A stretch of DNA of 64,000 nucleotides from Mustelus asterias. Taxonomy: Eukaryota. The position numbers were made by a program, and so were the translations under genes. Under the pieces are notes generated by a model, which saw only the letters and a program-made list of their open reading frames with translations, searched no databases and was not told where the DNA came from. Positions within the stretch are counted from its first letter, which is position 1. Each line of letters starts with the position of its first letter. Location of the stretch: contig NW_027590128.1 of NCBI RefSeq assembly GCF_964213995.1, positions 1,364,001-1,428,000 on the forward strand, read 5' to 3'. Positions 76 to 54,820 of this stretch are shown here, piece by piece.

Positions 76-960
76 CTCACATTTCCATGGTTTCTCCATG
101 GTGCCAGTATCCTTGTGTCTCTCCAGGTTGATGATCAGTTGACTACACACACTGCACATGTACGGTTCCTCCCTGCTGTGAATGGTGTGATGTTTTTTCA
201 GGCTGTGTAACTGGTTCAAGCTCTTTTCACAGTCAGTTCACTGGAACGCTGTCACTCGGGTGTGTGTGTCTCGCTGCTTTTCCAGTCACACTGATGTTTG
301 AAATCTTTTCCCACAGACAGAACAAACAAACATTTCTCCTTCCACATTGATATTCAGGTCCTGATGAATCGAATGACTGTCAGATCTCAATGTGATGTTT
401 GATTTAAGTTTCCCACCTGTCAATCCTCCCATCCTAATCCCCTGTAAAAGGAGTTTACAGAAGTTATCAGTGTAAATACAGGATAGAAATTCAGAACAGA
501 CAATTCTAGTTTGGATGGAACATTCTTTCCTTTCTTATTCCCTCCAATCATATGGTCCAAACGAACTGAAAGACAAAAATCAACAACCAAGCATCAACAA
601 AACCAAAGGGAACCTTCCGAACTGAACCAGAAAGTTCTGACCAGTGTGACTGATCCTTTTATGTGACTCGGGCACTAGGACCCAGTTAAAAACAGAAATC
701 CTGAATCCCGTCCACTCTCTGTTGTGTGACAATGGGCGTCACCAAGACGTCAGCGCATGCGCTCTGCCCTCCGCTGAACTAAGATGGCGGCTGGTAACCG
801 GGGTCTTCGCCCCAGGAGGACAAACCGGAGCTGCAAACGCGGAACCTGCAGGTCCGTATTCGCGGTTTGAGGCTTTCAGCAGGTATTTAGAAACCCTCCC
901 CGTTCACCCGCCGACTCCATCGGCCCTGCGCGTTTCCACACCTTCACCGGCTGCGGATCA
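76..960 (-). pseudogene. C2H2 ZNF gene relic (ZNF-0): first exon plus start of the terminal exon, interrupted by a LINE
   Basis: Minus strand: donor CCCG|GTTACC near 798; family acceptor CCTTTTACAG near 443; fossil fingers FVCSVCGKRFQTSV*LEKQRDTH; ATG at 99 gives MEKPWKCE, then the CR1 tail. Confidence 0.75.
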
Positions 961-2027: not shown

Positions 2028-2683
2028 GACTGTGTCCTTTCACTAACAAGACCAGCAGCAAACATTCCCCATCCTCGGGTACCTGTGGGCAAGATGATGT
2101 TTGACCTTCTTGAACCGTTGCAGTCCATGTGGTGAAGGTGCTCCCACAATGCATTAGGTAAGAGTTACAGGTTATTCACCCAGTGATGATGAAGGAACAA
2201 TGATACATGTCAATAATAACAATCTGTATTTATATGTCTTCCATGTAATAGACTTTCCCAGGGCATTTCAAAGAAGTGTTTTTCACACTAAATGCCTTTG
2301 CAGGTCAGTGAGCTCGGGGGTGATGATGAACAAGACTTGATGTGAGTAAGCACATGGCCAGCAGAGATTTGGATGACTTCAAGACTTCAGGGAGATTGAA
2401 TGTAGGAGGCCGGGAATGCATTCGGATAGTTAAGTCTGGAGTTATTGAAGGAATGGACGAGAGTTCCAGCTGCAGACGAACAGAATCAAGTGTAGGTTAG
2501 AGGGATTAGCGGGTAAAATATGTAGGGATATGGTGATAGGGCCTGGGTGGGATTGTGGTCGGTGCAGACTCGATGAGCCGAATGGCCTCTTTCTGCACTG
2601 TAGGATTTCTATGTTTCTAAGGACAGAGTAAGAGTTTTAACAACACCAGGTTAAAGTCCAACAGGTTTATTTGGTAGCAAATA

Positions 2684-2720
2684 CCATTAGCTTTCGGAGC
2701 GCTGCTCCTTCGTCAGATGG
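2684..2720 (-). ncRNA. Minimal type I hammerhead ribozyme (PLE pLTR)
   Basis: Minus strand CCAT-CTGACGA-AGGAGCAGCGCTCC-GAAA-GCTA-ATGG: intact core, stems I and II, palindromic AGCT helix III. Confidence 0.85.
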
Positions 2721-3611
2721 AGTGGAAATGTGCTCTCAAACAGGGCACAGAAACACACAAATCAAGTTACAGAATACTGATTAGAATGCGAATCCCGACA
2801 GCCAGCCAGATCTTAAAGATACAGACAATGTGGGTGGAGGGAGCATTAAGCACAGGTTAAAGAGATGTGTATTGTCTCCAGACAGAACGGCCTGCAAGTC
2901 CAGGAGGCAAGCTGTGGGGGTTACTGATAATGTGACGTAAATCCAACATCCCGGTTTAGGCCGTCCTCATGTGTGCGGAACTTGGCTATCAGTTTCTGCT
3001 CAGCGACTCTGCGTTGTCGTGTGTCGTGAAGGCCGTCTTGGAGAACGCTTACCTGAAGATCAGAGGCTGAATGCCCGTGACTGCTGAAATGCTCCCCCAC
3101 AGGAAGAGAACAGTCTTGCCTGGTGATTGTCGAGCGGTGTCATTGATGAAGACGAACATCTCGCCAAGGCCATCCCCACACACCCACTTCTTGTCTTCAA
3201 ACAACTGCGCAACCTCAAACAGACCATTGTCCGCAGCAAACTACCCAGCCTTCAGGAGAACAGTGACCACGACACCACACAACCCTGCCACAGCAACCTC
3301 TGCAAGACGTGCCGGATCATCGACGCGGATGCCATCATCTCACGTGAGAACACCACCTACTAGGTACACGGTACCTACTCTTGCAACTCGGCCAACGTTG
3401 TCTACCTGATACGCTGCAGGAAAGGATGTCCCGAAGCATGGTACATTGGGGAAACCATGCAGATGCTACGACAACGGATGAATGAACACCGCTCGACAAT
3501 CACCAGGCAAGACTGTTCTCTTCCTGTGGGGGAGCACTTCAGCAGTCGTGGGCATTCAGCCTTGGATCTTCAGGTAAGCGTTCTCCAAGGCGGCCTTCAC
3601 GACACACGACA

Positions 3612-4913
3612 TAAGAACATAAGAACATAAGAAATAGGAGCAGGAGTAGGCCATCTAGCCCCTCGAGCCTGCCCCGCCATTCAATAAGATCATGGCTGAT
3701 CTGACGTGGATCAGTACCACTTACCCGCCTGATCCCCATAACCCTTAATTCCCTTACCGATCAGGAATCCATCCATCCGCGCTTTAAACATATTCAGCGA
3801 GGTAGCCTCCACCACCTCAGTGGACAGAGAATTCCAGAGATTCACCACCCTCTGGGAGAAGAAGTTCCTCCTCAACTCTGTCCTAAACCGACCCCCCTTT
3901 ATTTTGAGGCTGTGTCCTCTAGTTTTAACTTCCTTACTAAGTGGAAAGAATCTCTCCGCCTCCACCCTATCCAGCCCCCGCATTATCTTATAAGTCTCCA
4001 TAAGATCCCCCCTCATCCTTCTAAACTCCAACGAGTACAAACCCAATCTCCTCAGCCTCTCCTCATAATCCAAACCCCTCATCTCCGGTATCAACCTGGT
4101 GAACCTTCTCTGCACTCCCTCCAATGCCAATATATCCTTCCTCATATAAGGGGACCAATACTGCACACAGTATTCCAGCTGCGGCCTCACCAATGCCCTG
4201 TACAGGTGCATCAAGACATCCCTGCTTTTATATTCTATCCCCTTCGCAATATAGGCCAACATCCCATTTGCCTTCTTGATCACCTGTTGTACCTGCAGAC
4301 TGGGCTTTTGCGTCTCATGCACAAGGACCCCCAGGTCCCTTTGCACGGTAGCATGTTTTAATTTGTTTCCATTGAGATAGTAATCCCATTTGTTATTATT
4401 TCCTCCAAAGTGTATAACCTCGCATTTCTCAACGTTATACTCCATTTGCCATATCCTCGCCCACTCACTCAGCCTGTCCAAATCTCTCTGCAGATCTTCT
4501 CCGTCCTCCACACGATTCACTTTTCCACTTATCTTTGTGTCGTCTGCAAACTTCGTTACCCTACACTCCGTCCCCTCCTCCAGATCATCTATATAAATGG
4601 TAAACAGTTGCGGCCCGAGTACCGATCCCTGCGGCACGCCACTAGTTACCTTCATCCAACTGGAAAAACACCCATTTATTCCGACTCTTTGCTTCCTGTC
4701 GGATAGCCAGTCCCCAATCCACTTTAACACATTACCCCCAACTCCGTGTGCCCTAATCTTCTTCAGCAGCCTTTTATGGGGCACCTTATCAAACGCCTTT
4801 TGGAAATCCAAAAACACCGCATCCACCGGTTCTCCTCCATCAACCGCCCTAGTCACATCTTCATAAAAATCCAACATGTTCGTCAAGCACGACTTTCCCC
4901 TCATGAATCCATG
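3612..4913 (-). mobile_element. Young 5'-truncated CR1 LINE with open RT C-terminal ORF
   Basis: Uninterrupted ORF 3711-4913 (HGFMRGKSCLTN, GVPQGSVLGP, KFADDTK); (TAAGAACA)n tail at 3612-3633; GACA duplicated at the junctions. Confidence 0.95.
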
Positions 4914-5210
4914 ACAGCGCAGAATCGCTGAGCAGAAACTGATAGCCAAGTTCCGCACACATGAGGACGGCCTAAACCGGGACGTTGGATTTATGTCACA
5001 TTATCAGTAACCCCCACAGCTTGCCTCCTGGACTTGCAGGCTGTCCTGTCTGGAGACAATACACATCTCTTTAACCTGTGCTTAATGCTCCCTCCACCCA
5101 CATTGTCTGTATCTTTAAGATCTGGCTGGTTGTAGGGATTCGCATTCTAATCAGTATTCTGTAACTTGTTTTTTGTGTCTCTGTGCCCTGTTTGAGAGCA
5201 CATTTCCACT

Positions 5211-5247
5211 CCATCTGACGAAGGAGCAGCGCTCTGAAAGCTAATGG
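5211..5247 (+). ncRNA. Minimal type I hammerhead ribozyme (PLE pLTR)
   Basis: CCAT-CTGACGA-AGGAGCAGCGCTCT-GAAA-GCTA-ATGG; G-U wobble in stem II. Confidence 0.85.
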
Positions 5248-5375
5248 TATTTGCTACCAAATAAACCTGTTGGACTTTAACCTGGTGTTATTAAAACTCT
5301 TACTGTGTTCACCCCAGTCCAACGCCGGCAACTACACATCATGTCTAAGGACAGAGTCAGGTGATGTTACTCAGG

Positions 5376-8405: not shown

Positions 8406-8665
8406 AATGACAATCCGGCAGTTTCCATGGTAACTTTTTCCCAGTGCCGGCCCCACAAATGACCAGATTCATTCAGCTCAATTTCACAACCTGCCTTTGA
8501 GTTTCTGTGGGTTCTCTCTCACTGCCTTTTTTCCATTTAAATCAGTTTCACAGGGTTTTAGAAGAGGAGGATTTTGAGTCAGGAAACACAAAGCGAACAT
8601 CACATCAGGATCTGATGGAGTCGCCCAATTTATTGTAACCATTGTATCATGATTGGATTTTGAAC

Positions 8666-11320: not shown

Positions 11321-11359
11321 GCTCATAGTTCATTTGTTCATATATTCTTATGTCTCTTT

Positions 11360-11700
11360 TCCTGGAAATCTCTCTCTCTCTCTTGGGAATGTGCATCACA
11401 CAACTTTTCCATTCGCACTGATGATTGAAATCTTTTTGAACAGGGCATCAGTGTTCCTCTGACATTTGATCACTGATGATAGTCATGTCCAAATGAATCA
11501 AGATGTTTCTGACTGAAAATCCTTCCATTCTAATCCCTTGTAAATAAAAACATCTATCAAAGCAATGAATGTAAGCACAGGATAGAAATTTGAAACTGAT
11601 ATTCTGGTTGTCACGTAACATTCTCCTCCCTTTCTGGAAAGCATTCTTTCTGGTTGTATCACAACTTGATATTTCTCCTGCTCTGTCCAAGACCACAAGA
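11360..11700 (-). pseudogene. Relic of a minus-strand ZNF intron/terminal-exon start
   Basis: Minus strand has the family intron block AATTTCTATCCTGT..., GGATTAGAATGGAAGGATTT and AAAAGATTTCAATCATCAGTGCGAATGGAAAAG, homologous to ZNF-0/2/3/4. Confidence 0.6.
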
Positions 11701-14149: not shown

Positions 14150-15364
14150 ATGGAGAAACCGGGGAAAGATGAGGATTGTGGTAAGGAATTCCATATCCCG
14201 TCTGCACTGCAAACTCATCAACATATTCGCACTGGGGAGAGACTGTTCCCCTGCTCCAAGTGTGGGGAAGGAGACTGCTCCCCATCTGCCCTGAAGATTC
14301 ATCAATGCAGCCACACTGGGGAGAGGCCCTTCATCTGCTCTGAGTGTGGGAAGGGTTTTCTCCAGGCAGCCGACCTGTGGAATCACCAAGCAGTTCACAG
14401 TAGGGAGAGGCTGTACACCTGCTCTGAGTGTGGGAAGGGATTCACTCAGTTATCCCACCTGCTGACACACCAGCAAGTTCACACTGGGGAAAAGCCGTTC
14501 AACTGCTCTGAGTGTGGGAAGCAATTCAATCATTCATCTGAACTTTTGAATCACCAACAAATCCACACCGGAGAGCGACCATTCACCTGCTCCGACTGTG
14601 GAAAGGGTTTCACTCAGTCATCTCACCTGCAGATACACCAGCGAGCCCACACTAAGGAGAGGCCTTTCAACTGCTCTGAGTGCGGGAAGTGTTTTATTCA
14701 ATTATCACACCTAGTGACTCACCAGGGAGTCCACAGGAGGGAGAGGCTGTTCCCCTGCTCCGAGTGTGGGAAGCGTTTTATTCAGTTATCACACCTAGTG
14801 ACACACAAAGGAACACACACAAGGGAGAGGCCATTCAGCTGCCCCGAATGTGGGAAACGTTTTATCCAATCGTCACACCTAATGTCACACCAGGGAGTTC
14901 ACAGCAGGGAGAGGCCATTCGTCTGCTCCGAGTGTGGGAGGCGTTTTATTCAATCATCCCACCTAGTGTCACATCAGGAGGTTCACACCAGGGAGAGGCC
15001 ATTTACCTGTTCCGAGTGTGGCAGGGGATTCATTCAGTTATCCGACCTGCAGAATCACCAGCAAATTCACACCGGGGAGAGGCCGTTCACCTGCTCTGAG
15101 TGTGGGAAGGGATTCACTCGTTCAGCTAACCTGCAGGCACACCAACGTGTTCACACCAGGGAGAGACCATTCACCTGCTCTGAGTGTGGGAAAGGATTCG
15201 CTCTTTCATCTTATCTGCAGAGTCACCAGCAAGTTCACACTGGAGAGAGGCCGTTTATCTGCTCTGAGTGTGGAAAGGGATTCATTCAGTCATCCCACCT
15301 GCAGACACACCAACGAGTTCACAAGGATTCACAAAGGGATTCACTCAGTCATCCCACCTGCTGA
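14150..15364 (+). CDS. C2H2 zinc-finger protein ZNF-2, 13 fingers plus one degenerate
   Basis: Open frame; Kozak-like CACCATGG at 14150; acceptor TTTTACAG at 13815. Confidence 0.9.
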   Translation: MEKPGKDEDCGKEFHIPSALQTHQHIRTGERLFPCSKCGEGDCSPSALKIHQCSHTGERPFICSECGKGFLQAADLWNHQAVHSRERLYTCSECGKGFTQLSHLLTHQQVHTGEKPFNCSECGKQFNHSSELLNHQQIHTGERPFTCSDCGKGFTQSSHLQIHQRAHTKERPFNCSECGKCFIQLSHLVTHQGVHRRERLFPCSECGKRFIQLSHLVTHKGTHTRERPFSCPECGKRFIQSSHLMSHQGVHSRERPFVCSECGRRFIQSSHLVSHQEVHTRERPFTCSECGRGFIQLSDLQNHQQIHTGERPFTCSECGKGFTRSANLQAHQRVHTRERPFTCSECGKGFALSSYLQSHQQVHTGERPFICSECGKGFIQSSHLQTHQRVHKDSQRDSLSHPTC

Positions 15365-20462: not shown

Positions 20463-21455
20463 ATGGACAAACCGTGGAAATGTTAGGATTGTGGTAAAGG
20501 GTTCAATTATCCATCCCGGTTGGAAATCCATCGATACGGTCACATTGGGGCTGGGAAAATGGAGAAACCATGGAAATGTGATGATTGTGGTAAAGGATTC
20601 AATTATCCGTACTTGCTGGAAAACCATAGACACAGTCACACTGGAGAGAGGCCATTCATCTGTTCTGTGTGTGGGAAAGGATTCACTACCTCATCCCACC
20701 TGCTGTTACACCAGCGAATTCACACTGAGGAGAGGCCGTTCAGCTGCTCCACCTGTGGAAAGGGGTTCTCATGTTCATCCAACCTCAGTGCACATCAGCG
20801 AGTTCACACTGGGGAGAGATCGTTCACCGGCTCCTTGTGTGGGAAGGATTTTGCTGGGCCATCCGGTCTTTGGTCACACCAGCGAATTCACACAGGAGAG
20901 AAGCCATTCACCTGTTCTGTGTGTGGTAAGAGATTCACTCTGTCATCTAACCTGCTGTCACACCAGCGAGTTCACACAGAGGAGAGACTGTTCAGCTGCA
21001 CTTCCTGTGGAAAGAGGTTCAGGTCTTCATCAAACCTCAGTGCACACAAGCGAGTTCACACTGGGGAAAGGCCGTTCACCTGTTCCACGTGTGGGAGGGA
21101 ATTCACCAATTCATCCGGCCTCCTGTCACATCAGCGAATTCACACTGAGGAGAAGCCATTTATTTGCACATAGTGTGGAAAGAGTTTCAGGCAGTTATCA
21201 ATCCTCACTGCACATCAACACACTCACACTGGGGAGAGACCATTCACTTGCTCCATGTGTGGGAAGGGATACGCTCAGTCTGGCAGCCTGCATTTACATG
21301 AGCTCACCCACACTGGGGAGAGGCCATTCACCTGCTCTGTGTGTGGGAAGGGATACACTCGGTCATCCCACTTGCTGACACATCTGCAAGTTCACAATTG
21401 CCTGCAGGAGTTGGATTTTGCAGTTACTGCAGCTGTTAATCACATCCAGGATTGA
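20463..21455 (+). pseudogene. ZNF-3: C2H2 array with two in-frame TAG stops (could still make a truncated 6-finger protein from ATG 20559)
   Basis: Single frame from ATG 20463; TAG at 20484-20486 and 21171-21173 (CT*C); one finger has Cys>Gly; frame continues to 21455. Confidence 0.8.
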
Positions 21456-22340: not shown

Positions 22341-22550
22341 GTAAGAAGTCTAACAACACCAGGTTAAAGTCCAACAGGTTTATTTGGAAGCAAAAGCCAC
22401 TAGCTTTCGTCAGGTGGGTGGGAGCCTGACAAAGGAACAGCGTTCCGAAAGCTAGTGGCTTTTGCTTCCAAATAAACCTGTTGGACTTTAACCTGGTGTT
22501 GTTAGACTTCTTACTGTGTTTACCCCAGTCCAACGCCGGCATCTCCACAT
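22341..22550 (+). mobile_element. Short fold-back Penelope pLTR insertion
   Basis: 14-bp TSD CAAAGATATTCATA (22327-22340, 22551-22564); ~68-bp inverted arms; hammerhead-like CTGACAA..GGAAC/GTTCC..GAAAGCTA at 22426-22454. Confidence 0.9.
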
Positions 22551-23062
22551 CAAAGATATTCATACCCAGCCTTGCTCATTTGTGTTGGAGGCTGAATGCC
22601 TTTTTGGTGCTGGCAGCTAATTAGTGGAAAGTATCACTCGTGTAACCACGACATAGTCGCAGAATGAAACAGATTAGTGTTCCCTCTGTATTGTGCAGCC
22701 TTGTGATTGTGCTAAAGGCCATCACTTTCAGATCTGAAAAGTGCCTGGGTCAAGGTCAAATTACCCCAGAAAGGGACATTTTCTCTCAAATCTGAAGCAA
22801 CAGGTGAAGCAAATCATTTCACACTGAAACACATCTTCAACGTTGCGGTAGTTTGTTCAGTTACACACTTGGTGGTCACGTGACTCTGGTTGTAGCATTC
22901 CTGAGCCTCATTGGAGGGATTCCTCACATGAGCCGAGTTTGAGGAGAGTATCTCTGGCCTCCAGTGAAGCAGCCGCTGAATCTATTCCTGGAAAAAACAC
23001 ATTTGGAATATTGTGATAATGCTGTCTGAATCCATCAGGACAATTTTGTATTCACTTGGGTG

Positions 23063-24743
23063 GGATAATGTTCACTGTTTTATATTCGGGTCTGAGGGAT
23101 AATGTTCACTGTTTTATATTCGGGTCTGGGGGGGATAATGTTCACTGTTTTATACTCGGGTCTGGGGGATAATGTTCACTGTTTTATATTTGGGTCTGGG
23201 GGATAATGTTCATTATTTTATATTCGGGTCTGGGGGGGATAATGTTCACTGTTTTATATTCGGGTCTGGGGGGGATAATGTTCACTGTTTTATATTCGGG
23301 TCTGGGGGGGATAATGTTCACTGTTTTATATTCGGGTCTGGGGGGGATAATGTTCACTGTTTTATATTCGGGTCTGGGGGGGATAATGTTCACTGTTTTA
23401 TATTCGGGTCTGGGGGATAATGTTCACTGTTTTATATTCGGGTCTGGGGGATAATGTTCACTGTTTTATATTCGGGTCTGGGGGGATAATGTTCACTGTT
23501 TTATATTCGGGTCTGGCGGGGGGGGATAATGTTCACTGTTTTATATTCGAGTCTGGGGGATAATGTTCACTGTTTTATATTCGGGTCGAGGGGATAATGT
23601 TCACTGTTTTATATTCGGGTCTGGGGGATAATGTTCACTGTTTTATATTCGGGTCTGGGGGCGATAATGTTCACTGTTTTATATTCGGGTCTGGGGGATA
23701 ATGTTCACTGTTTTATATTCGGGTCTGGGGGGGATAATGTTCATTGTTTTATATTCGGGTCGAGGGGATAATGTTCACTGTTTTATATTCGGGTCTGGGG
23801 GATAATGTTCACTGTTTTATATTCAGGTCTGGGGGATAATGTTCACTGTTTTATATTCGGGTCTTGGAGATAATGTTCACTGTTTTATATTCGGGTCTGG
23901 GGGGATATTGTTCACTGTTTTATATTCGGGTCTGGGGGATAATGTTCACTGTTTTATATTCGGGTCTGGGGGGGATAATGTTCACTGTTTTATATTCGGG
24001 TCTGGGGGATAATGTTCACTGTTTTATATTCGGGTCGAGGGGATAATGTTCACTGTTTTATATTCGGGTCGAGGGGATAATGTTCACTGTTTTATATTCG
24101 GGTCTGGGGGATAATGTTCACTGTTTTATATTCAGGTCTGGGGGATAATGTTCACTGTTTTATATTTGGGTCGAGGGGATAATGTTCACTGTTTTATATT
24201 CGGGTCTGGGGGATAATGTTCACTGTTTTATATTCGGGTCGAGGGGATAATGTTCACTGTTTTATATTCAGGTCTGGGGGATAATGTTCACTGTTTTATA
24301 TTCAGGTCTGGGGGATAATGTTCACTGTTTTATATTTGGGTCGAGGGGATAATGTTCACTGTTTTATATTCGGGTCTGGGGGATAATGTTCACTGTTTTA
24401 TATTTGGGTCGAGGGGATAATGTTCACTGTTTTATATTCGGGTCTGGGGGGGATAATGTTCACTGTTTTATATTCGGGTCGAGGGGATAATGTTCACTGT
24501 TTTATATTCGGGTCTGGAGGATAATGTTCACTGTTTTATATCCGGGTCTGTGGGGGATAATGTTCACTGTTTTATATTCGGGTCTGGGGGATAATGTTCA
24601 TTGTTTTATATTCGGGTCTGGAGGATAATGTTCACTGTTTTATATCCGGGTCTGGGGGGGATAATGTTCACAGTTTTATATTCGGGTCTGGGGGATAATG
24701 TTCACTGTTTTATATTCGGGTCTGGGGGGTATAATGTTCACTG
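23063..24743 (+). repeat. Minisatellite, about 49 copies of (G)nATAATGTTCACTGTTTTATATTCGGGTCT, mostly 33-36-bp units
   Basis: Directly visible head-to-tail array with variable G run and GTCGAG, TTCAGG, TTTGGG variants; copy number estimated from length. Confidence 0.97.
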
Positions 24744-25649
24744 TCTGGGGTTTGTGAGCTCGGGTCGATTCTGCCTACGGCGCATTCTCGGTTGTCAGAG
24801 CTCTCATTAAAAGCCCTAATTTCCAGTCAGTGACTGAGCTGTCTCTGATGGGATGGGGAATCAGAGTGGGGGTAATGTGCTTCATGGACAGCGATGGGTT
24901 GGAATGAGTATAAAATAAACCCGGATTACACCAGGTAATTGTGAGAACATTAAAATCACCACAAAAAATCATAGCACCATGTTGGAAAACAGAATACTTT
25001 GGCTCAATCTTTGATCAATTTTGTTTGAATCAATATTTTGAGTGGCTTGTCGGATTGCTGGTTATTTTCTAACGGCAGCTCAGCATCATCATTTTGACCA
25101 TAAACTCAGCCCCGGTGACTGCTGCATTTTTCCAGCACCTTCTGTTTTAATTTTAAGTGGAACCTTAATATCTGCTTAGTACACAGGACAATTTATCTTT
25201 CCAGGGGTGAGTGTGTCTGAGAAGTATGCAACTGGAAAACATTTTCCATTCATCTCCTATATTGCTGTATTATATATACATTGTTCTCACTCTGCCAGCA
25301 TGGTTGTGGATTAATTGGATAGATCTTAAAGACAGCCCGACTGGGCAGGATGAGCCAAATGGTTTCCATCTGTGATGTATCATTCCATAAAACAGAATAT
25401 TCAGCATCAGGAGAAAGAAAGTGAAAGAAACCAGTCTCTCTGGGATTTACCCAACCAGTATGAGCACCTTCGGGAGAGTAGAGAGAGGGGAGGAAACCAG
25501 TGGGAAAAGATTTAAAAATTTGGGGTATTCCCACAGGAGAGCACTGGTTTAAATCAATTTTAGAAATAGAGAATGGCAGCGCACAAATTCCGAGGAATGC
25601 ATTTTTAAAAATTATTTAATCTTAATTGCACAAGATAATTTTCTATTAT

Positions 25650-28800: not shown

Positions 28801-30754
28801 TATGAATTTTTAAACGGCCATCCATTTCTGTGTTTCACCTCTGCCCTCCCTGATCAGCTCTTTGCCATTGTCTACCTTCCTCTGCCTCTAATAATGGGTG
28901 TATTTTAACTATTATTTCCGCAAGCTATGTCTTGATGAGGTTTTTACCACTTCACAACTCTATTCACTGCTGATTTACCAGCTTAGTCTTACAATGTTCA
29001 GGAACTGTTTCTCTTCCACTGGAGATCATTTCCCTTCCACTTCTGAGCTTATATTGACCAACAAAATCTGATACATTTTTATTCCCTGTAATTCATTCTG
29101 CCCACCCTGAAACGTTAATCTTCTTTCTGTCTAAAAGGACGGTCTCTTTCCAAATGTTCACAATTAAAGGGCAGGAGATGGCTGATATTTAAGGGGACAG
29201 TAAATTAATACAGGACAGAGATATGTCTAGTGTTATTATATAGTACCCAGATTAGATATATTATTTATGTTTCTGTAATAAAATACATTTATTATTTCTT
29301 GCATTGTAATATAATACTGTAGCGATGTTATACATTTCCAGTCATAAAGTCATTACAGCACAGAAGGAATCCATTTGGTAACTCGAGTCCATGCTGACTC
29401 TCTGTATGACATTCCAGTCCCATTCCCACTCTATATCCCCATTCTCCTGAAAGTTTATTTCCTTCAAGTGCCCAACCACTTTCATTTTTAAATGGAATCC
29501 ATAGATAGGGATGGAGATTTACAACTTTTTGAGAATGAAATAGAAAAGAATGTTCCATAGAAACTAGAATTGTCTGCTCTGAATTTCTATCCTATACTGA
29601 CTGTGATGACTTTTGCAAACTCATTTCACAGGATTTTCAATGAGGAATCACAGGCAAAGATCTCAACCGCCACGTCTGGACAGAGTCATATTCCTTGGGA
29701 TCTGAATATCTTGTAATATGGAACTGTAGCTACGTTATATACTTCCAGACATCTCTTCCCTCAGAGGGTTGTTAGTCTTTTGGATTCCTCTTCCACAGGG
29801 ACCAGTGGATGCTGAGGATCATTGAATATATTCCAGTTAGACAGATCTTTGACTGACAACGGTGTCAAGGGTTATGGGGAACAGACAAGAAGATGGAGCA
29901 AAAGCTAATACGTGGGGGGATTTCTTCACTCAAGGATGTGGTAAAGCTTTGGAATTCTCAACCCCTGAGGACAGTGAAGCCTCAGTCATCAACTATTTTC
30001 AAGAGAGAGATTGATTGGTTTCTAGATATTGAAGATATCAAGGGATATGGGTTTAGTGTGGGGAGAATGATGCTGAGGTAGATGAACGAATTATCTCATT
30101 GAATTGTTTAAAAGGCTCGATGGGCCAAATGGCCGACTGCAGCTCCTATTTGTTATGGTCTCTGTGTCCAGGACAGGAAGCAGTGAGCATGGATCTGTCA
30201 ATCAGCCTCAATCAGCACCTTCAGGAGATTGGGAGGGTGAATATTAGATACAGCAGGGTGAGAATGGAGGGAGAGTGTGTGGGATGGAGATTCACAGCTT
30301 TTTGGAACTGAAATAGGAAAGAATGTTCCATAGAAACTAGAATTGTCTGTTCTGAATTTCTATCCTGTACTGACACTGATGACTTTTGTAAACTTGTTTT
30401 GCAGGATATTGAAAGAGGAATCACAGGCCGAAATCTCAAACGTCACGTCAGATCTGACAGAGTCATATTCCATGGGAGTTGAATATCATCGGCCTTTGAA
30501 TCCAGAAGGAGAAATTATTGTCTGGTCTCTTGATTTGCAAAGATTTGAAATGTCAGTGTGACTGGAAAAGCACCGACACACGGCCACACTCGAGTGAGAG
30601 TGTTCCAGTGCACTGACTAAAGAGCTTTAACCAGTTACACAGCCTGAATAAATATCACACCATTCACAGCGGGTAGAGACTGTACCCGTGTTCTGTGTGT
30701 GGACGAGGCTTCAACTGATTGTCCACCCAAGAGAGAGGCAAGGACACCTGCACC

Positions 30755-31597
30755 ATGGAGAAACCATGGAAATGTGGGAACTGTGGGAAGAGATACAGAT
30801 ACCCATCAGAGCTGGAAGCTCATCGGCGCAGCCACACTGGGGAGAGACCGTTCACCTGCTCTCAGTGTGGGGAGGGATTCACTCAGTCATTCAGCCTGCA
30901 GTCACACCAGCGAGTTCACACTGGGGAGAGACCATTCACGTGTTCTCAGTGTGGGAAGGGATTCACTCGGTCATCCGACCTGCGGTCACACGAGCGAGTT
31001 CACACTGGGGAGAGGCCGTTCACCTGCTCTCAGTGTGGGGAGGGATTCAGTCATTTATCCACCTTGCGCACTCACCAGCGATTTCACACTGGGGAGAGGC
31101 CATTCACTTGCAGTGTGTGTGGGAAGGGATTCACTCGGTCATCCGACCTGCGGACACACCAGCGAGTTCATACTGGGGAGAGACCATTCACCTGCTCTCA
31201 GTGTGGGGAGGGATTCACTTGGTCATCTGACCTGCGGGCACATGCATGCGTTCATACTGGGGAGAGGCCGTTCACCTGCTCTCAGTGTGGGAAGGGATTC
31301 ACTCGGTCATCCCACCTGCAGAGACACCGGCGAGTTCACACTGGGGAGAGGCAGTTCATCTGTTCTCAGTGTGGGAAGGGATTCTGTGATTCATCCAGCC
31401 TGCTGAGACACCAGCGAGTTCACACTGGGGAGAGGCCATTCACCTGCTCTCAGTGTGAGAAGGGATTCACTCGATTATCCAACCTGCGGACACACCAGCG
31501 AGTTCACACTGGGGAGAGGCCGTTCACCTGCTCTGTGTGTGAGAAGAGATTCAGTCTTTCATCCGCTCTGCTGAGACACCAACGAGTTCACGAGTGA
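30755..31597 (+). CDS. C2H2 zinc-finger protein ZNF-4, 10 fingers
   Basis: Open frame; CACCATGG at 30755; acceptor TTTTGCAG at 30404; highly homogeneous [11 protein letters not shown] linkers. Confidence 0.9.
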
Positions 31598-34490: not shown

Positions 34491-34873
34491 ACTCTCCACC
34501 TTCTGTCCAAATGGAGCACATGTGCCCCGCACAAAGATGGACGTCACTTAATGTCAGAGATATTTGCAATATTGAGTCCAGATTACCTTTTGTCAAAGCA
34601 AAAAGACATAGAAAGTGGGAGATATTTATACTGCAGGGTGAGGGAATGAAAGATGAGCTATAGCCACAGAAACCAGGGGAAAATACTGCGAATGGCTGTC
34701 GCATTCTCTCTTTGGACAGCCATTACAGCACCAGGGACTCAGGTTCGTTTCTCGGCTTGGGGTGACTGTGCGGAGTCTGCACGTTTTCCAGGTGTTCCTG
34801 TTTCCTCCCACACATCATCTTTTTCTTCTCATGAAAATCCAGTATTTCCGATCGCCCTGAATGAATTTTGAGG

Positions 34874-35388
34874 GGGGTTGAAGTGTGTAGTCGGACAAGT
34901 TGACAATGGACTTCCCTGCAGTGGTACTGTTTTCTACTGTGGTACCGGGGGAGGCTTGGTTGCTGCTGGTGGTGATGCCGAGTTTCTCAAGTTTCCTGTT
35001 TTTGGTGTGCATGTAGATGGTGTAGTTCCTTTGTCTCGTCTGCTTAGCAGAGTTTCGCAGCTGGTCTGCGTCCTGAGCGCAAGTTGAGAATATGGATTCG
35101 ATCTTGGTTTCCAGGCTGCGGCGTTTGCTGTAGAGTTGGTGTATGAGGTGGTTGAGGAGGGTGAGAGAGGTGCGACGGCAAAGTCTCTCAGCGTAGTCTG
35201 TGTTATAGGTTGACCTGAGTGGGTTCGTGATCTGTAGTCCTTTCGGTATCTTGTCTGCTTTCTTGCATCTTTGTAGAAACTTGATGTCTGTGTCGATATG
35301 CGCGATCTTCTTGGCGATCCTCTCCACTTGGAGCCGGCAGTTTGCGGTGTCGATGGTAGCCATGATGTGGAGACATCATCTCCACATC
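34874..35388 (-). mobile_element. Penelope-like element N-terminal ORF fragment (inverted insertion)
   Basis: 13-bp TSD ATGAATTTTGAGG (34861-34873, 35389-35401); ORF MATIDTANCRLQVERIAKK..FLQRCKKADKIPKGL..SIVNLSDYTL preceded by the pLTR end TCTCCACATC. Confidence 0.85.
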
Positions 35389-36223
35389 ATGAATTTTGAG
35401 GTTCAGGTCAGAGCGAAAAAATAAAAGCAAAAATCTGTGAATGCTGGAATCTGAAACAAAAACTGAAAATGAACCACTGTGGCAAATGCACATTCTCAAT
35501 CTATTTTACCAGGTATTTGTTTCATTATTCAACATTTAACATCGATACATTTATTTATTATGCATCTCCTGATTCTGAATTGAATATCTCTGACATATGC
35601 AGCATTGAATTGCAAATATGACTGACCAACGAAACAGATCGAGTCACTGGTTAATGCACACCCCATGATGCTCATTTGAGATTGACCACAATCAGTTTAT
35701 AAACAAAATCAAATATGTTTAATGGGAAGAGATTTAAGAATGACCAGTTAGTTTATTCTGGGTGTGAAATATTCTGGTGCCTAAATCCCATTCATCTATA
35801 GGAAAGTCCAGTAGATCTGCACTGAGCCTCGATTTCCTCATCAGCATGAATGGTTTTCCCTGTATCTTTATTATGAAAACCGATTTTAAAAAGATGTTTC
35901 TGTGCAATGTGCACCAATTCCTCTAGTTCAGTCACAGTATCACTTGTGTCTGTCTTTATGAGCACACACTACTATTAGACATGTTTCAGATGGTGATTAA
36001 CTATGTTGGTCTACATCTATAAACCCATGGATCGAACAAGTTGCTAATATATGCACGGTGTCAAAATACAAACGTCTCTTTCCTGCAACTGCATCTAAAA
36101 ATGCAGCATTTCTGATTTTCCTGAAAGCATTTGAGACCGAGGTCAAAACATAATATGGCAACATCGAGAATTGGATAATGTTCAGCAAATAACCAAAATC
36201 ATGCATACTTCCTGAAATGCTAA

Positions 36224-36296
36224 AGTTTCTAGCTGGTTTTGAACCAGGGACTTCTCACGCATTAGGCAAACATGATAACCACTACACTACAGAAAC
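36224..36296 (-). pseudogene. tRNA-Val pseudogene (probably AAC-derived, anticodon now reads AAT)
   Basis: GTTTCTGTAGTGTAGTGGTTATCATGTTTGCCTAATGCGTGAGAAGTCCCTGGTTCAAAACCAGCTAGAAACT; CpG-decay changes disrupt stems. Confidence 0.8.
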
Positions 36297-38460: not shown

Positions 38461-38533
38461 TGCTTCTGCCCGGTTTTGAACCGGGGACCTTTCGCGTGTG
38501 AGGCGAACGTGACAACCACTACACTACAGAAAC
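38461..38533 (-). tRNA. tRNA-Val-CAC: tRNA-Val (CAC), near intact
   Basis: GTTTCTGTAGTGTAGTGGTTGTCACGTTCGCCTCACACGCGAAAGGTCCCCGGTTCAAAACCGGGCAGAAGCA, 73 nt; stems pair with G-U wobbles; only a weak TTTATT terminator follows. Confidence 0.85.
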
Positions 38534-41714: not shown

Positions 41715-42030
41715 TTATCTGGATATGTATCTATCAGCCTTTACAGGTGACCGTGTGTGTATCTGTTTCCAATATGCGGCATTGCTGTCCACGGGAGGGC
41801 GCTCTCTGATCACTTATGAAAAATCACGATTCCCTTCGAGAGGAAGCGTCTGTTTGAAGATGTAAAAATGGGCGGAGAGACGAAGTGACTTTCGGCCTCA
41901 TACCATTCCACTGACTGTTTCAACTTCTCCATTTCCAGGTCTTATGCAGACAGTGATCACTGCCTCTGTTTCTGGTGTTCAGACTGGAACTATGGGGGTG
42001 AAAGTCTGTCTGTCTCTGGTTATTGTCCTG

Positions 42031-42252
42031 ATGATGTGGAGATGCCGGCGTTGGACTGGGGTAAACACAATAAGAAGTTTAACAACACCAGCTTAAAGTC
42101 CAACAGGTTTATTTGGTAGTAAAAGCCACACAAGCTGTCGGAGCTCCAAGCCCCTTCACTCACCTGAAGAAGGGGCTTGGAGCTCCGAAAGCTTGTGTGG
42201 CTTTTGCTACCAAATAAACCTGTTGGACTTTAACCTGGTGTTGTGAAACTTC
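42031..42252 (-). mobile_element. Short fold-back Penelope pLTR insertion inside the V1 leader exon
   Basis: 11-bp TSD TTATTGTCCTG (42020-42030, 42253-42263); ~85-bp inverted arms. Confidence 0.92.
42161..42197 (+). ncRNA. Minimal type I hammerhead ribozyme
   Basis: CAC-CTGAAGA-AGGGGCTTGGAGCTCC-GAAA-GCTT-GTG. Confidence 0.8.
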
Positions 42253-42708
42253 TTATTGTCCTGCTCACAGGACGGTCATTTTGAACCTTTGACTGAAATC
42301 CGCCAATCACCATATTAATTGCCCATTTCCATTTCTAGGTGATTATTCCGTTGTTGTTACTCCTTCTAAACCGCTGCGCGTCTGTTGTCTATTTTCAGCG
42401 ATGAGTAACGGTGACTCAGTGTCCCAGTCAGAACCAGGAGTTGAAGCATCAGAGGGTGAAGATTCAGCAACACCCTGCAGTTACTCTGTATCGAGTTTAG
42501 CTACAGTCTATGTCCTGTTCTGGTATCGCCAGTATCCACACCGAGCTCCTCAGTATCTGCTCAGAGCCGAGAGTTATGGATTTACCGATACGGCTCCCGG
42601 CTTTAAACATTTCAGCTGGAATCTCAGCGAGACACAAAGCACTTTTCACTTGTCCATGAAAGATTTGAAGATGACAGATAACGCCGTGCATTACTGTGCA
42701 CTGAGACC

Positions 42709-42747
42709 CACACTGAATGAGGATCCCGCGGGCTTCGTACAAAAACT
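42709..42747 (+). promoter_or_regulatory. 23-RSS of V1
   Basis: CACACTG + 23 nt + ACAAAAACT. Confidence 0.92.
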
Positions 42748-43673
42748 GGCGCAGGTCCTCAATCAATGGTTCCTTGTCCGCAAAACACATTGCATTGAAT
42801 TTCAGAGAAAATGTACAGATGATGAACCTGACAATGCAGCCCCAGCTGAGTGGCTTTCCCTCCCTAACGTCAGTGATTGTCACTGTTGGGGAAATGTGAC
42901 ATTTGGCGCTCAGATTATTCCTGTATAAATCCAATCATTTCCTGATCAAAATCACAAAACCCACAGATGTCCCGAGTGAATAACTTAATAAATCAGTACT
43001 TCCCATCTTTCTGTATCAGATGCCTATCTGTCAGGGGAACCTGTTAAATGTGATCCAATATTAAAGGCACACTGAGAGTTGTCACATTTTGAAGTTTCTG
43101 GACAGAAATCATGACTGATTGAATCAGTACTTTCCCAGTATAAGAGTAATCCCAGTGGAAATGCAAGTCAATGTGGACTTGGGTGATTACTTATCCCCGG
43201 TATAAATAAAGCAGTAGCTACTATTATGTTTATGCAGTGGATGCACTCATTAATACCCGCAGAGTAAATGAGGGTAAATTATTTATTTCACTTTTAACTT
43301 TATTTAGAAAGAAAAATCTATCTATAAAAAGGGGGACATTGAGTTCGAATGAAAGAGGGTTAACCGAGAAAGAGACAGTGTAACTGATAATGTTATTCAC
43401 CTCTCATGGAGAGAGAAAGAGAGTGAGAAAAACACACACAGCCCGGGATGGAATGTGTTTGGAGGGAGCCAGCTGTGTTTAGTCCTCCACTAACAGTGTT
43501 TGGTCCACAGCTGACGTTATCTCAAGGGGACCAGCCAATTGCAACACTGGGAAAACCCCCCAATTTGCCAATTATTGAAGCTGCCTCTGATCTGAGTTTA
43601 CTCCGTGATATAAGACTAGAAGCAACAACATATTTTAAACAGTGTCGCTGTTTACTGTCCATTCAGGAACCAC

Positions 43674-44150
43674 ATGTTCCCTGCGTGTTCTACTGATAAT
43701 AATGGACATGCTGCCCGGTGAGTCTGTGCTCAAATCCTCAGTGTGTGTTCAATGGGTTATATTCACTCACAGATTTCTCACACAGTCTATATGTTGTTAC
43801 AGGAACCAATGTCCAAACTTCAGTTTCCCAGGAGCCGCCTGAATTAACGGTTCAGGAAGTACAGACGGTAATTTTGAACTGCAGTTATAAAGATAAGTAC
43901 GTTGACCAAACTCTATTCTGGTACATCCTGTATCCCGGAGAAGCTCCGAGATATTTATTGAAAAGTTACGGCAAGGGGAAGGGGGATAAGTCTCCTGATT
44001 TTTCGGACCAGTTTTCTGCTAATTTGGACAGAGACAAGAAAACAGCTCCATTAAATATCACCGGGGTCCGTGTCTCTGACTCTGCCGTGTATCTGTAACA
44101 GTGTGCGCTGAACCGCAGTTACAGAGACGCAGTTAGTCCGTACAAAAACC
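43674..44150 (+). pseudogene. TRAV/DV: TCR alpha/delta-type V pseudogene V2
   Basis: Leader 43674-43717 (SLRVLLIIMDMLP, +1 frameshift after ATG, GTGAGT donor); exon from 43803 VSQEPP..LNCSY..LFWY..DSAVYL*QCAL; damaged RSS CGCAGTT + 21 nt + ACAAAAACC. Confidence 0.9.
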
Positions 44151-45514
44151 AGCAAAGGCATTCTCACCTCCTCTCACTGAATCCGATCTCTGAGCTGGAT
44201 TGTGAACAGTTAATAGAAACAAAATCATCTCATTAAAACCAATTAAACCGAATGATCAGGTTCTTTGTGCTGAATGTCTGTCAGTGTATGTAAAATCCCT
44301 CTTTATAGTAGTTTCTGTCGTTTACGAGCAACTCTGAATAGGAGACTCTGGTGCTGTTATTACAACATGAAATAAAACTCATCAGAGGCATATCTCAAAA
44401 ATCATCTCAGTCAAAAACCATACATTCGCTTTAATGCACTCTATGTGTCAAAGAGAGCGATGATTGTACAGTCGTTTGATTTCTTGAAGGCAGTTGATAG
44501 ATTTGTGGATATTCAGGGAAATAACGGATATGGAAGTAGTCATAGAGTCATAGAGGTTTACAGCATGGAAACAGACCCTTCTGCCCAACTTGTCCATGCT
44601 ACCCTCTTCTAACCACTATGCAAGTCCCAATTGCCCGCGTTTGGCCCATATCCCAACAAAATATTTGTCTGAGCATGAAGACTTATCCCGCGGTTTCGAT
44701 TTCCCAAAGCACTTCTGGTGATTACAGCAGACTTTTAAAGAAAGACTTTCGGGCATGTGGGCATCGCGGGCTCGGCCGCTATTTATTGTCCATCCCTAGT
44801 TGTCCTTCAGGAACTTTCTGACGCTCTTCTCAATTAGGTTTCTGCATTCAGTCGATTTTCTTACCAAATGTTCCAGTGTCTAGAGTACACCAAACCTGTC
44901 CTCCGAGATTATTAATAGAGATATTAATCATTGTTCATTGGATTCTAAGCATGTATTGAAATAAACTTTTGTACCTTTACTGTTAAGGATTCTTAGTTTT
45001 AATATGTGTCAAGTGTTCATTGTGTTAATATGAGTCACATTCTTCCGAACTCTTTCCAATGAAGTTTCTCTTCGATTCTCAGTTGATATTTTATTTCATT
45101 ACTGTAACATTGAGAGATGTTTAATCAGGCTGTTGTGATTATGAGGATTTGCCTCAGCAGGCGGGCATCAGTTTACACTATTGACTGACATATCAAACCA
45201 AACTGTATTCGTTTCTTTGCCCCGAGTTTCTTTGAAACATCAGAACAAGGGTACAACTAGTTCAAGGCTACCTGCAGCATTTTGAATTCTCAATATTAGT
45301 GCCGATTTCCCGGTGATTCCAAATAAACAACAGCTAATTCTTCCCTCGCACAGTGAATGTAATAATCAGACGGATTCTGTGAACGATTTTAGATGGTGTT
45401 TGTGTGAATTGTGGGCTGGTTTGCGTTCACAGGAATGTATTGACGTGTTAGTGTATAACCCGCTGTTAGAAACAACACTCGACAGACAGCAGCTGTGACT
45501 CAGAAACTTGCGGC

Positions 45515-45553
45515 AGTTTTTGTACGAGGATTTCACTCGTTCTCATCACTGTG
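45515..45553 (-). promoter_or_regulatory. Near-consensus 23-RSS of V3
   Basis: Minus strand CACAGTG + 23 nt + ACAAAAACT. Confidence 0.95.
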
Positions 45554-45857
45554 AGACTCTGTGCACAGTAATAGACCGCGGTGTCAGACAGCCGCAGCTC
45601 CGAAATAGTCACTCGGTACAAATTGTCTGACTGCTGGACTGAATCAGAAAACCGAGTCCGAGCGAAATCCGCCTTTAATTCAAAACCGCCCTTCTTGTCT
45701 CTCCGGACTGCAAACTCAGGCTGTTTTCCTGGGTATTGACGATACCAAAATAAATAATAAGCATCGTCGGTAAAGGTGCAGTTTAAAGTGACATCTTCTC
45801 CCTCTGTCCGTGTGAGTGAGGATTCCCGCTGAGGAACAGAATCTCCATCGCTCAGAT
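45554..45857 (-). CDS. TRAV/DV: TCR alpha/delta-type V exon V3, open reading frame (absent from the ORF track)
   Basis: After TTTCAG acceptor: LSDGDSVPQRESSLTRTEGEDVTLNCTFTDDAYYLFWYRQYPGKQPEFAVRRDKKGGFELKADFARTRFSDSVQQSDNLYRVTISELRLSDTAVYYCAQS, no stops. Confidence 0.92.
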
Positions 45858-46548
45858 CTGAAACACACGGTTAAAGAAAGGAAAAACATTGATTAAAAGT
45901 TCAATTGAACTAAGGGAGAAAATTCACTGACAGTGCAACATAAAAATATGTATTGAATGTATTGAATCATACCACATTCTCTCCAACTGATCTATGTTCC
46001 CGTTTACAGTCCCCTGGAGATTCCTCCCTCTCGCCTCTTCTCAATGCAGTTGTCCCTTTCTTCCTCAGCTGTTTAGTTTAGTTTACCTTTAAATAAGTAT
46101 TTGCTCCTCTCCTCAAGTGTTCATTGTGTTAATATGAGTCACATTCTACCCAACTCTTTCTAAAGATGTTTCTCTCCGATTCCCAGTTGATCTATTTGTT
46201 TCATTAGAATTTTGGGACATATATTTGGATTCCTCCTACAAGTGGAATCATCCTCTCCCCGTCCACCACACCAATCCTCGTTATCATTATAAATAGATCA
46301 GTCAGGTTTGCGTTAGTTTCTTTGGTCAGTCGAGAAAGTAATCATAATCTTGCATTCTGATAGCTCTCATCTCCCAATCCGAGTACCATTTCTCGAAATC
46401 GCCTTTTCAGTGTGCTTTTCGAATCTATTTTCAAAAGACTAAAACCACTCGCAAGAATTCATTTGTCCAATACCTGTATAACATGAATGTCCTGCTTTTC
46501 AACTTTATTCCTCCAGAAAATAACTCATTTTTAAAGTATTAAACTCAT

Positions 46549-46855: not shown

Positions 46856-46881
46856 GAGCTCCTTTCTGCGCTAATTCATGA

Positions 46882-46957
46882 CAGTAAGAACTCTCACAAC
46901 ACCAGGTTAAAGTCCAACAGGTTTATTTGGTAGCACAAGCTTCCGGAGCGCTGCTCC
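46882..46957 (-). mobile_element. Truncated Penelope pLTR fragment
   Basis: CAGTAAGAACTCTCACAACACCAGGTTAAAGTCCAACAGG; stops within the hammerhead. Confidence 0.8.
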
Positions 46958-50599: not shown

Positions 50600-50741
50600 A
50601 CATGATGAGGAGATGCCGGCGTTGGACTGGGGTGAACACAGTAAGAAGTCTCACAACACCAGGTTAAAGTCCAACAGGTTTATTTGGCAGCAAATACCAT
50701 GAGCTTTCGGAGCGCTGCTCCTTCGTCAGATGGAGTGGAAA
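50600..50741 (-). mobile_element. Solo Penelope pLTR fragment
   Basis: Near-identical to the reverse complement of 5202-5343. Confidence 0.9.
50697..50733 (-). ncRNA. Minimal type I hammerhead ribozyme
   Basis: Minus strand CCAT-CTGACGA-AGGAGCAGCGCTCC-GAAA-GCTC-ATGG. Confidence 0.85.
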
Positions 50742-52222
50742 GCACAGAGTCCTTCGTCACGGAGTTGCTTAGGATGAACCTCGACCAATAAAAAAAGCTT
50801 CTCATCACCTCGGGATATAACTGGATAGTTTATCTGCTACGTTCGGGTTTTGTGTCTCAGTGACTCACTGACACAGTAACACACCCCAGCGCCTGATACC
50901 GATGTGCTGTCTCCATTAGGACTGGTCAAAGGTCTTGTTGAGTGAATGAAGAGTTTGAAGAGTCTGTGGTGTTTCTGCTAACAGATGAAATGACAAATTT
51001 CAGGCCACGGTTCTGTTGCAGGCTGAACGAGCGGATGCTCTCAGGGCATCAGGTGATTGTATTTCATTGGATTTCAATCGATTGTCACTCTTGTGTTAAT
51101 ATCTGCTGTGATTGAGAGGTCGCAGACACTCCACCGATAATTGTCCATGCAAAAGTAAGTTGTTTTTTATGGTCAACACTCTCCTTCCAAAATTGCTCAC
51201 TTAAAATCAAAACGGGAAGCTGCAATTCCACTAATTGCCGTTTCCTGGTTTCTGCATTCTCTCGATCCAGAATATTAAAGGAGTATGACGTCAATGGAGG
51301 TTTAATGGAATACGTAATCATATATATTACTTCCATGGTAAATATCTTTCATATCGTCACCGAGGACAAAGTAGAAATGCAACACTGATGTGTGGTTTTC
51401 GATAAGTTGCCTTGGGACAGAATTTTCATATATCCTTTTCAGTAAAAGGCAGAATTATCTCCTTTGCTCAGCCAACTCGGAGTTTCAAAGTCGCAAATGT
51501 TTAGCTCAGTTTCTCTCTCCACAGAGTCTTTCCAGCAATTTTCTGTTTTTATTTCAGATCTCCCTATCATATGTACACATAGACATGCATTATTTCATAT
51601 TGGCACCGAGAACATTCCTGTCGGTTGCAATTCCTCCTGTGTTTCATTATATCCAAGGAAATGACTAATAACGGCATTTGGTGTGGAAATTAATATTTGA
51701 TATTAATGCGGGAGTGTTTGATATGTCTGTCGATATGTTGGGCGTTGGATATACATGATTTGTACTATGTGCATTGGCTGCAAGTTGTTGATTAATCTCA
51801 CTCCGAACAACAGCAACATGCATCACATTCTGGAGTACTTCCATGGAGTGGAATGTAAAATGACTACTGGAATTTTTTCAAAGTATCAAAATATTACGAT
51901 GGACCTGAGCACCAGCTGATGGTCCATTATGCGGGATATCTGTTATTGAAACCTGTAAGGGAGAGACAAGGGAGAAATGTAGGTGGAGATATGGGAAGAA
52001 AACAAGAGGGATTGAATAATTGGAATTGGAGGCGAGACCTGGAGTTAAGCAGAGCAAGAACCGGTGATATAAATGAATGAATCAGGAATAGATTTAGAGG
52101 AAGATACAATCAGAGAAACAGCTGCAGCAAAATAGACAAATACGAACTAAAAAATGGGGAATATTTGTTCCAAGTGTTATTTTCACTCCCAGATATTTGA
52201 TACATTCTGTGTTTTGTTGCAG

Positions 52223-52550
52223 AAATAGTGATGATTCTGTGTCCAATGATCAATCTGAATTAAGGGTTCTCCAAGCACAGAGCATAATGCTGTATTGTAA
52301 ATACTCGACAGCTACTCTCCCTACTCTGTTCCTGTATCCCAGCCAAACTCCGAGATATTTAATGAGGATTTATAGCTCGGAGGATGTGGAAAAATATTGC
52401 CTACTTTGTACAAAGGAACACTGTTCCTCAAATGTCACCAGGACGCTTCTCTCCGATACCCCCTTGTGTTTCTGCTGCAGAGATAGAACGGATCCCGGAG
52501 AAAAGCACCGCACTTAGTGATCAGCAGAGGGCGCGCTCACCCGAAAAACA
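52223..52550 (+). pseudogene. Heavily degenerate TCR V segment V4
   Basis: After TGTTGCAG: DDSVSND..MLYCKYST..LFLYPSQTPRYL..NVTRTLLSDT..FC; conserved Trp lost; RSS-like CTTAGTG + 22 nt + CGAAAAACA. Confidence 0.6.
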
Positions 52551-54529: not shown

Positions 54530-54820
54530 TTGTATTTGATTTATTATTGTCATGTGTATTAGTATGCAGTGAAAAGTATTGTTTCTTGCGCGCTATACAA
54601 ACAAAGCATACCGCACATAGAGAACAGTAAGAAGGCTCAAAACGCCAGGTTAAGGTTTATTTGGAATCACGAGCTTTCGGAGCGCTGCTCCTTCATTACG
54701 TGAGTGGAAAGGTAGGTTTCACAAACACGGCATTACACGCACATAGAAAAGGAAAGGAGAGATTGCAGAATGTAATGTTACAGTCATAGCTAGGGTGTAG
54801 AGAAAGATCAATTTAATTAA
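54530..54820 (-). mobile_element. Rex1-type tail with nested Penelope pLTR fragment (~54625-54735, mutated hammerhead core)
   Basis: Flanks match 39730-39885; insert minus strand CAC-GTAATGA-AGGAGCAGCGCTCC-GAAA-GCTC-GTG. Confidence 0.75.

Follow-up and report, generated by a model that had tools for sequence, protein, structure and literature searches.

How does a fragment of a retroelement come to lie within one target site duplication (TSD) with a short terminus at one end and an inverted piece of the element's own open reading frame (ORF) at the other, and what does such a copy tell about the positions at which reverse transcription begins? The first-pass annotation of the window analyzed here (a stretch of 64,000 nt from the shark Mustelus asterias) had proposed that insertions of this Penelope-like element (PLE) end at its start codon and at a second fixed site upstream, and that both ends mark internal starts of reverse transcription. 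We followed this proposal through the genome (3.68 Gb), with particular attention to the copy described above (the focal copy).

The element and the focal copy

The element is a young PLE with an 892-aa ORF encoding reverse transcriptase (RT) and GIY-YIG domains, and with a tandem unit of 3,097 bp; the coordinates used below are those of a natural tandem copy (locus L047), with the A of the ATG taken as +1. The 892-aa protein matches the RVT_1 RT domain. By itself it gives no match to the Pfam GIY-YIG domain, which was detected in 29 of the 40 aligned members, and the profile of these 40 sequences matches the catalytic GIY-YIG domain of I-TevI (E 0.004). The predicted protein model (pLDDT 89.8) shows long N-terminal helices, and its top six Foldseek matches are all TERT; neither the sequence search nor the literature search returned a solved PLE structure. 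A CxxxxCxxC linker at residue 754, present in 35 of the 37 homologues that cover this residue, would assign the element to the Neptune/Nematis type, for which the available part of PMC8557442 gives a CX2-5CxxC zinc-finger-like linker ahead of GIY-YIG as the marker. The RT and GIY-YIG domains, the pLTR/tandem layout, the inverted copy, the one-sided tail of 30-40 nt and the TSD together identify an EN+ Penelope-like element.

A genome-wide search with the focal N-terminal piece (34876-35363) gave 5,334 candidates at first look; of the 150 best matches, about 100 (counted by hand) lie in frames of ~900 codons or longer. In a set of 20 loci picked for long frames, all 20 have a stop-free frame of at least 912 codons. 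The ATG column is common to two homologues at 61-62% identity and is likely to be the start codon of the PLE ORF. The ORF, identified in the first-pass annotation by its beginning MATIDTANC, is contiguous with RT and GIY-YIG, but MATIDT itself is a minority variant, found in 0 of 25 long frames, most of which have MTTIDT. Two young subtypes (represented by L047 and L034) differ by a 77-bp stretch located just after the stop codon, which repeats the ORF end, and both arms of long insertions belong to the same subtype wherever this stretch is visible.

The focal copy is composed of the TSD, two extra G residues, inverted ORF sequence from +488 to -10, a filler of 4 nt, sense sequence from -11 to +1, and the second TSD copy (Table 1), in agreement with the initial description of a terminus of ~11 nt joined to an inverted ORF piece. 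The inverted arm is 99% identical to an intact natural copy, and the filler is likely to come from slippage. The insertion has a duplicate on another contig (L007), together with its flanks (3,392 of 3,399 bases identical), which differs at ORF +4. With the exception of this duplicate, the notion that the ORF pieces constitute one duplicated family was rejected in general, as the pieces have different partners.

Table 1. PLE-related features of the window (strand "." denotes a two-ended insertion)
Feature	Position	Strand	Remarks
Left half-site CTG of target CTG-N16-CAG	34857..34859	+	read from sequence; motif enrichment
Left TSD copy of focal insertion	34861..34873	+	13 bp maximal; 12 bp in fixed-stagger frame, 34862-34873
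Inverted arm of focal insertion	34876..35373	-	PLE +488 to -10, N-terminal ORF, ATG at 35363
Junction filler, 4 nt	35374..35377	+	matches element -12..-9 (by eye)
Sense S2 terminus of focal insertion	35378..35389	+	-11 to +1
Right TSD copy of focal insertion	35390..35401	+	12-bp frame; first bases = +2..+4 of common ATGA variant
Right half-site CAG of target palindrome	35404..35406	+	
Two-ended insertion	2630..5343	.	S1 arm left, S2 arm right; 14-bp TSD; CR1-like piece inserted
Putative minimal hammerhead motif	5211..5247	+	predicted cut after 5243; one stem II change in this copy
Two-ended S1+S2 insertion	22341..22550	.	14-bp TSD
Two-ended S2+S1 insertion	42031..42252	.	11-bp TSD
Solo S1 arm	46881..46957	-	TSD none found
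Solo S2 arm	50600..50742	-	hammerhead motif 50697-50733; TSD none found
Solo S1 arm	54624..54737	-	10-bp TSD (54612, 54738)

The window also contains other repeats and gene segments. V-set segments similar to T-cell receptor alpha/delta V (42293-42928, Pfam V-set; by eye also 43703-44098, 45466-45870 and 52098-52517) are interspersed with PLE stubs, and four C2H2 zinc-finger array genes or exons were recognized by eye (8639-9940, 14114-15364, 20487-21400, 30719-31597). A decayed RT fragment (10554-11447, minus strand, RVT_1) reads like the same PLE family, and CR1-like RT pieces are present too. Two tRNA-like copies (36224-36296 and 38461-38533, minus strand; one with a CAC anticodon, by eye) lie within a unit of ~1.1 kb that is present three times, and a tandem minisatellite occupies 23040-24744 (unit ~34 bp, 92% identity).

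Two end classes and their pairing

Copies of the element end at either of two sites 37 bases apart, which bracket a 37-nt tail just before the start codon; counted from the ATG, the median position is -37 for S1 and -1 for S2. Loci that had not been picked for their ORF supplied 164 unique arms, of which 76 end at S1, 77 at S2, 9 between them and 2 elsewhere. This is beyond chance; the termini are clustered rather than scattered, and the two fixed ends are confirmed as real and genome-wide. Junctions placed in the target frame, after exclusion of 12 S1 and 4 S2 arms mismatched in their last 8 nt, give a median of -37 for S1 (range -42 to -33, n=24) and of -1 for S2 (26 of 27 within -4..+3). 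Exact counts in the genome are 172,902 for the 29-mer upstream of S1, 57,995 for the 28-mer ending at -1 and 1,132 for the 28-mer across the ATG, numbers that are shaped also by CpG decay and subtypes. Loose ends at positions equivalent to S1 and S2 were found in contigs of three other organisms.

Within the window, the ends at 5343, 22550, 35388, 42031 and 50600 all fall within ~3 nt of CACATC|ATG, as had been noted. The other arms were said to start at GTAAGA, which is exact at 2630, 22341, 46882 and 54625, while at 42252 the motif differs by one base and overlaps the TSD of that insertion; the distance between the two sites, earlier put at ~40 nt, measures ~36-38 nt. Likewise, the TSD range of 11-14 bp holds for four insertions (14 bp at 2616/5344, 14 at 22327/22551, 13 at 34861/35389 and 11 at 42020/42253), but the arm at 54625 has 10 bp, and no duplication of at least 6 nt was present at 46882 and 50600 within the ranges searched.

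The coincidence of S2 with the ATG is probably incidental, because the register of the ends differs among PLEs: according to the available parts of the respective papers, the start sites of Anolis are at +111-118 (PMC11167929), Adineta Pen2a has its tail across codons 13-22 (PMC3846280), and a 34-bp repeat is placed at the ORF start (PMC2377424). A special role of the ATG in the choice of ends is unsupported given this variation, and the location of ends on the ATG looks family-specific.

The pLTR contains a putative minimal hammerhead, whose predicted cut is located ~60 nt upstream of the S1 ends and 97-99 nt upstream of the S2 ends (base -1). Of 134 descriptor matches, 127 have at least 3 pairs in stem I and at least 4 in stem II; there is a compensatory change in stem I between subtypes, and a palindromic AGCU replaces helix III. 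Rfam gave no hammerhead match within the 64-kb window. A pile-up of 5' ends at the predicted cut was not seen in the sample (4 of 132 within 1 nt), with single cases present.

Several motifs surround the two sites. AATAAA occurs at -81 and a branch-point-like CTTAC at S1 (by eye; element -81..-21 corresponds to window 5260-5325), an initiator-like/AG motif at -27..-21 is close to the stops of many ORF pieces (by eye), and the distal site is AC-rich. The interpretation of S1 as the 3' end of a polyadenylated RNA was rejected, because the S1 junctions match the genomic continuation and carry no A tails. An intron in the pLTR was considered from the branch-point/AG-like motif, which ends at -24 (by eye); no joint that would fit such an intron, or a spliced template, is among the joints listed. 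RNA stem-loops around S1 and S2 fold no better than shuffled sequences (z from -0.08 to -1.17), no covariation was seen by eye around S1, and no RNA record holding the sequence was among the matches listed.

Of 212 arms, 131 received a TSD call and 81 had none. With the short duplicate loci, a satellite locus and all TSDs above 17 bp taken out, 80 calls were kept, 79 of them distinct and one made twice; two calls (L014, L027) are false. The lengths peak at 12-13 bp. Among the TSD-bounded calls, 57 (56 distinct) are S1+S2, none is S1+S1 or S2+S2, 14 have S1 only, 5 S2 only and 4 are of other types, so that wherever both ends are defined by a site (56 distinct insertions), one is S1 and the other S2; a single site-defined end without inversion accounts for 19 of the 80 calls. 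With the TSD requirement dropped, the outward-facing pairs (n=56) comprise 45 S1+S2, 9 S2 with an unclear end, one S1+S1 and one S2+S2, the last in a locus with nested insertions. No head-to-head S2+S2 arrangement under 800 bp was found among the first 100 tail-bearing arms listed.

The lengths of the two arms bear on the origin of the inversion. Clean junctions are available for 51 of 60 insertions. The S1 arm reaches further in 21 of these and the S2 arm in 15, whereas the reaches of the other 15 are within 10 nt of each other; that either arm may be longer argues against simple fold-back. Self-priming of one cDNA by fold-back, suggested for Adineta in the available part of PMC3846280, would agree with the head-to-head layout and with the occurrence of some junctions in local hairpins (by eye), but in the 21 of 51 insertions the tail-less arm has upstream sequence absent from the tail arm, and the tail arm has the tail. 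As each arm holds sequence missing from its partner, neither copies the other, and fold-back is largely refuted for these insertions; the focal inverted arm has 488 nt missing from its partner, and as a general source of the inverted arm fold-back is highly improbable. The reaches of the two arms correlate (rho 0.66, and 0.71 for the 44 shorter insertions), and the arms agree in subtype in 36 of 40 pairs, as compared with 31% expected, and differ in 4. Such agreement might also arise from a single active donor in each cell, or from gene conversion at a later time.

Target site, ORF pieces and a proposed mechanism

The motif CTG-N16-CAG, centred on the TSD, is present at 28 of 79 sites, versus 0.15% of random sites, and the focal site fits it exactly. 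Many targets are repeats, so that the sites are not all independent; with similar targets clustered, 15 of the 62 clusters have the motif. One position in a dispersed repeat with a CTG-N16-CAG site is a recurrent hotspot, hit by separate insertions that differ in length (L042, L044, L051, L061-L063, L070, L087, L095, L123), and a short-unit satellite array (L033), left out of the counts, harbors several separate PLE insertions. The first bases of the TSD match the continuation of the element over a mean of 1.38 nt for S1 junctions (0.62 after permutation) and 1.41 nt for S2 junctions (0.55 after permutation) (0 of 10,000 permutations reach the observed values).

This microhomology and the spread of the ends over several bases speak against resolution of a DNA or tandem intermediate by the endonuclease at two staggered cuts, an explanation of the tail offered in the available part of PMC8557442, according to which the ends would not be RT starts. 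Resolution would naturally yield one end with the tail and one without it, and tandem copies of 3,097 bp do exist; on the other hand, the tail of the reference copy, as read from its sequence, is not framed by CTG-N16-CAG, and the genomic ends in Anolis coincide with the RT starts measured in vitro (PMC11167929, available part). We regard this explanation as distinctly unlikely. Two internal RT starts 3' of the hammerhead, with the template running on past both, are supported, since the junction microhomology fits them, as do ORF sequences from beyond S2 that are present in short pieces.

The ATG-spanning matches number 92 in 90 loci; 71 end inside the ORF and 21 run on. Ten of them end exactly at +92 (P ~3e-8), and with a second search pattern 6 of 30 ends fall at +92..94 (2 seen before, 2 sharing one locus), which makes +92 a minor hotspot of ORF-side ends. 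Among 69 loci with ORF pieces, 46 have them internally, likely as a result of template jumps, 10 show the focal layout and 13 other terminal forms. The 10 focal-layout loci, one from the second pattern and the window copy make up a focal class of 12. Here the partner arm begins within the ORF, and the template positions at which the two arms stop nearly coincide (rho 0.77; the median distance between them is 3 nt). The S2 arm reaches at most 45 nt in all 12, versus 2 of 53 ordinary insertions. The simplest reading of this class is a single RNA that ended, or met a block, within the tail (genomic data do not distinguish an RNA 5' end from a block by protein or structure), and the matched stops point to twin priming on one RNA.

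Alternatively, each strand might prime internally on an RNA of its own, one for each subunit, the site being chosen by order or geometry. Such a scheme avoids two RTs on a single template, minimal hammerheads probably work in dimeric form (PMC4209133, available part) and the palindromic AGCU is present here, and 4 of the 40 pairs do differ in subtype; yet the correlated reaches, the 3-nt median between stops in the focal class and the subtype shared by 36 of the 40 pairs would not be expected of it, and we consider it unlikely.

Our preferred interpretation, which we hold to be probable on the sequence evidence, is that the focal copy is a truncated insertion of a Neptune-type PLE, made when cuts in both strands of a palindrome each primed inside one RNA, at S1 and S2. 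A dimer (by analogy with Anolis) would cut the spaced palindromic target, leaving two 12-nt 3' overhangs, each of which would anneal by 1-4 nt at S1 or S2 of the same RNA; the two cDNAs would then stall or run off, and a head-to-head joint would form between them. For the focal class, the template probably had its end, or a block, within the tail, so that the second primer was placed downstream in the ORF (at +488 in the focal copy, both of whose cDNAs probably stopped near -10/-12). As both arms copy the same template stretch, the model would require either that one strand be displaced or that the RNA be a tandem with a second unit. The mechanism rests on the genomic footprint, with RT starts deduced from insertion ends; the two end classes, the S1+S2 pairing, the CTG-N16-CAG bias, the TSDs of ~12 bp, the microhomology and the correlated stops are observed.

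A more specific version, which we offer tentatively and with somewhat less than even confidence, is that an asymmetric PLE dimer cuts CTG-N16-CAG, places the resulting 12-nt overhangs in two different registers of one RNA and extends both simultaneously. On an RNA that lacks S1, the second primer would be forced into the ORF, with a preference for ACA ends like +92. If this is true, a single reaction would account for the TSD as well as for the inverted arms and the one-sided tail, and the arm stops shared in the focal class would be due to both cDNAs running off the 5' end of one RNA, which may be a transcription start inside the tail.

Comparison with known systems

The closest counterpart is PAc, the Poseidon of Anolis carolinensis (Frangieh et al. 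2024, PMC11167929), the source of the only PLE protein reconstituted so far according to the available part of that paper. In vitro, two internal RT starts of PAc bracket a tail of 30-40 nt, and the protein, a predicted dimer, nicks and extends both strands; the idea of two internal RT starts is therefore not new, having already been demonstrated for this element. In the shark PLE, as judged from genomic ends, the ends similarly bracket the tail 3' of the hammerhead at the pLTR-ORF junction, and an AC-rich distal site and long N-terminal helices are common to both. PAc differs in its clade (Poseidon, versus the CxxxxCxxC linker here), its sites (+111-118 versus -37/-1) and its target (an AT-rich ATT target versus CTG-N16-CAG), and the available part of the paper states no S1/S2 pairing rule. 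The shark family would extend internal initiation to a second PLE clade.

Canonical EN+ PLEs share the layout, TSDs of 9-16 bp, partial tandems and a tail near the ORF start (PMC8557442, PMC3846280, PMC2377424), and the inverted copy with a one-sided tail has been described (PMC8557442, PMC3846280); in their available parts these papers invoke endonuclease resolution or self-priming, whereas the shark insertions are quantified as S1+S2 with either arm long. The hammerhead resembles the metazoan PLE minimal hammerheads (available part of PMC4209133) in lacking helix III, in its short stem I and longer stem II and in its location in the pLTR, here at the level of the motif. We did not find in print a PLE pairing rule for S1 and S2, CTG-N16-CAG or another palindromic PLE target, copies in which either arm may be the longer, microhomology with the RNA continuation at the two junctions, or the focal class. 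In the available part of a preprint (10.64898/2026.07.22.740005) the terms 'tail', 'initiation' and 'target site' do not occur.

PLEs are the closest relatives of the telomerase RT, and insertions with an inverted repeat and a tail bear on their mechanism. The S1+S2 two-ended copies likely mean that both cut strands start copying the same RNA. In LINE-1 twin priming, both nicked strands prime on one RNA, producing an inversion inside one TSD, and the shark PLE would likewise prime both strands on one RNA. LINE-1 uses the poly(A) end and a variable internal site, and its arms do not overlap, whereas the shark PLE has two fixed internal sites and overlapping arms. The family combines many young intact ORFs and a defined target with sharply defined pairing and more than 170,000 ends that match exactly, and it allows specific predictions for a test of twin priming. 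The PLE mechanism whose footprint is seen here is a known one; its presence in a new family is real and well supported, and the quantified S1+S2 rule and the focal class add to it by making twin priming on a single RNA testable.
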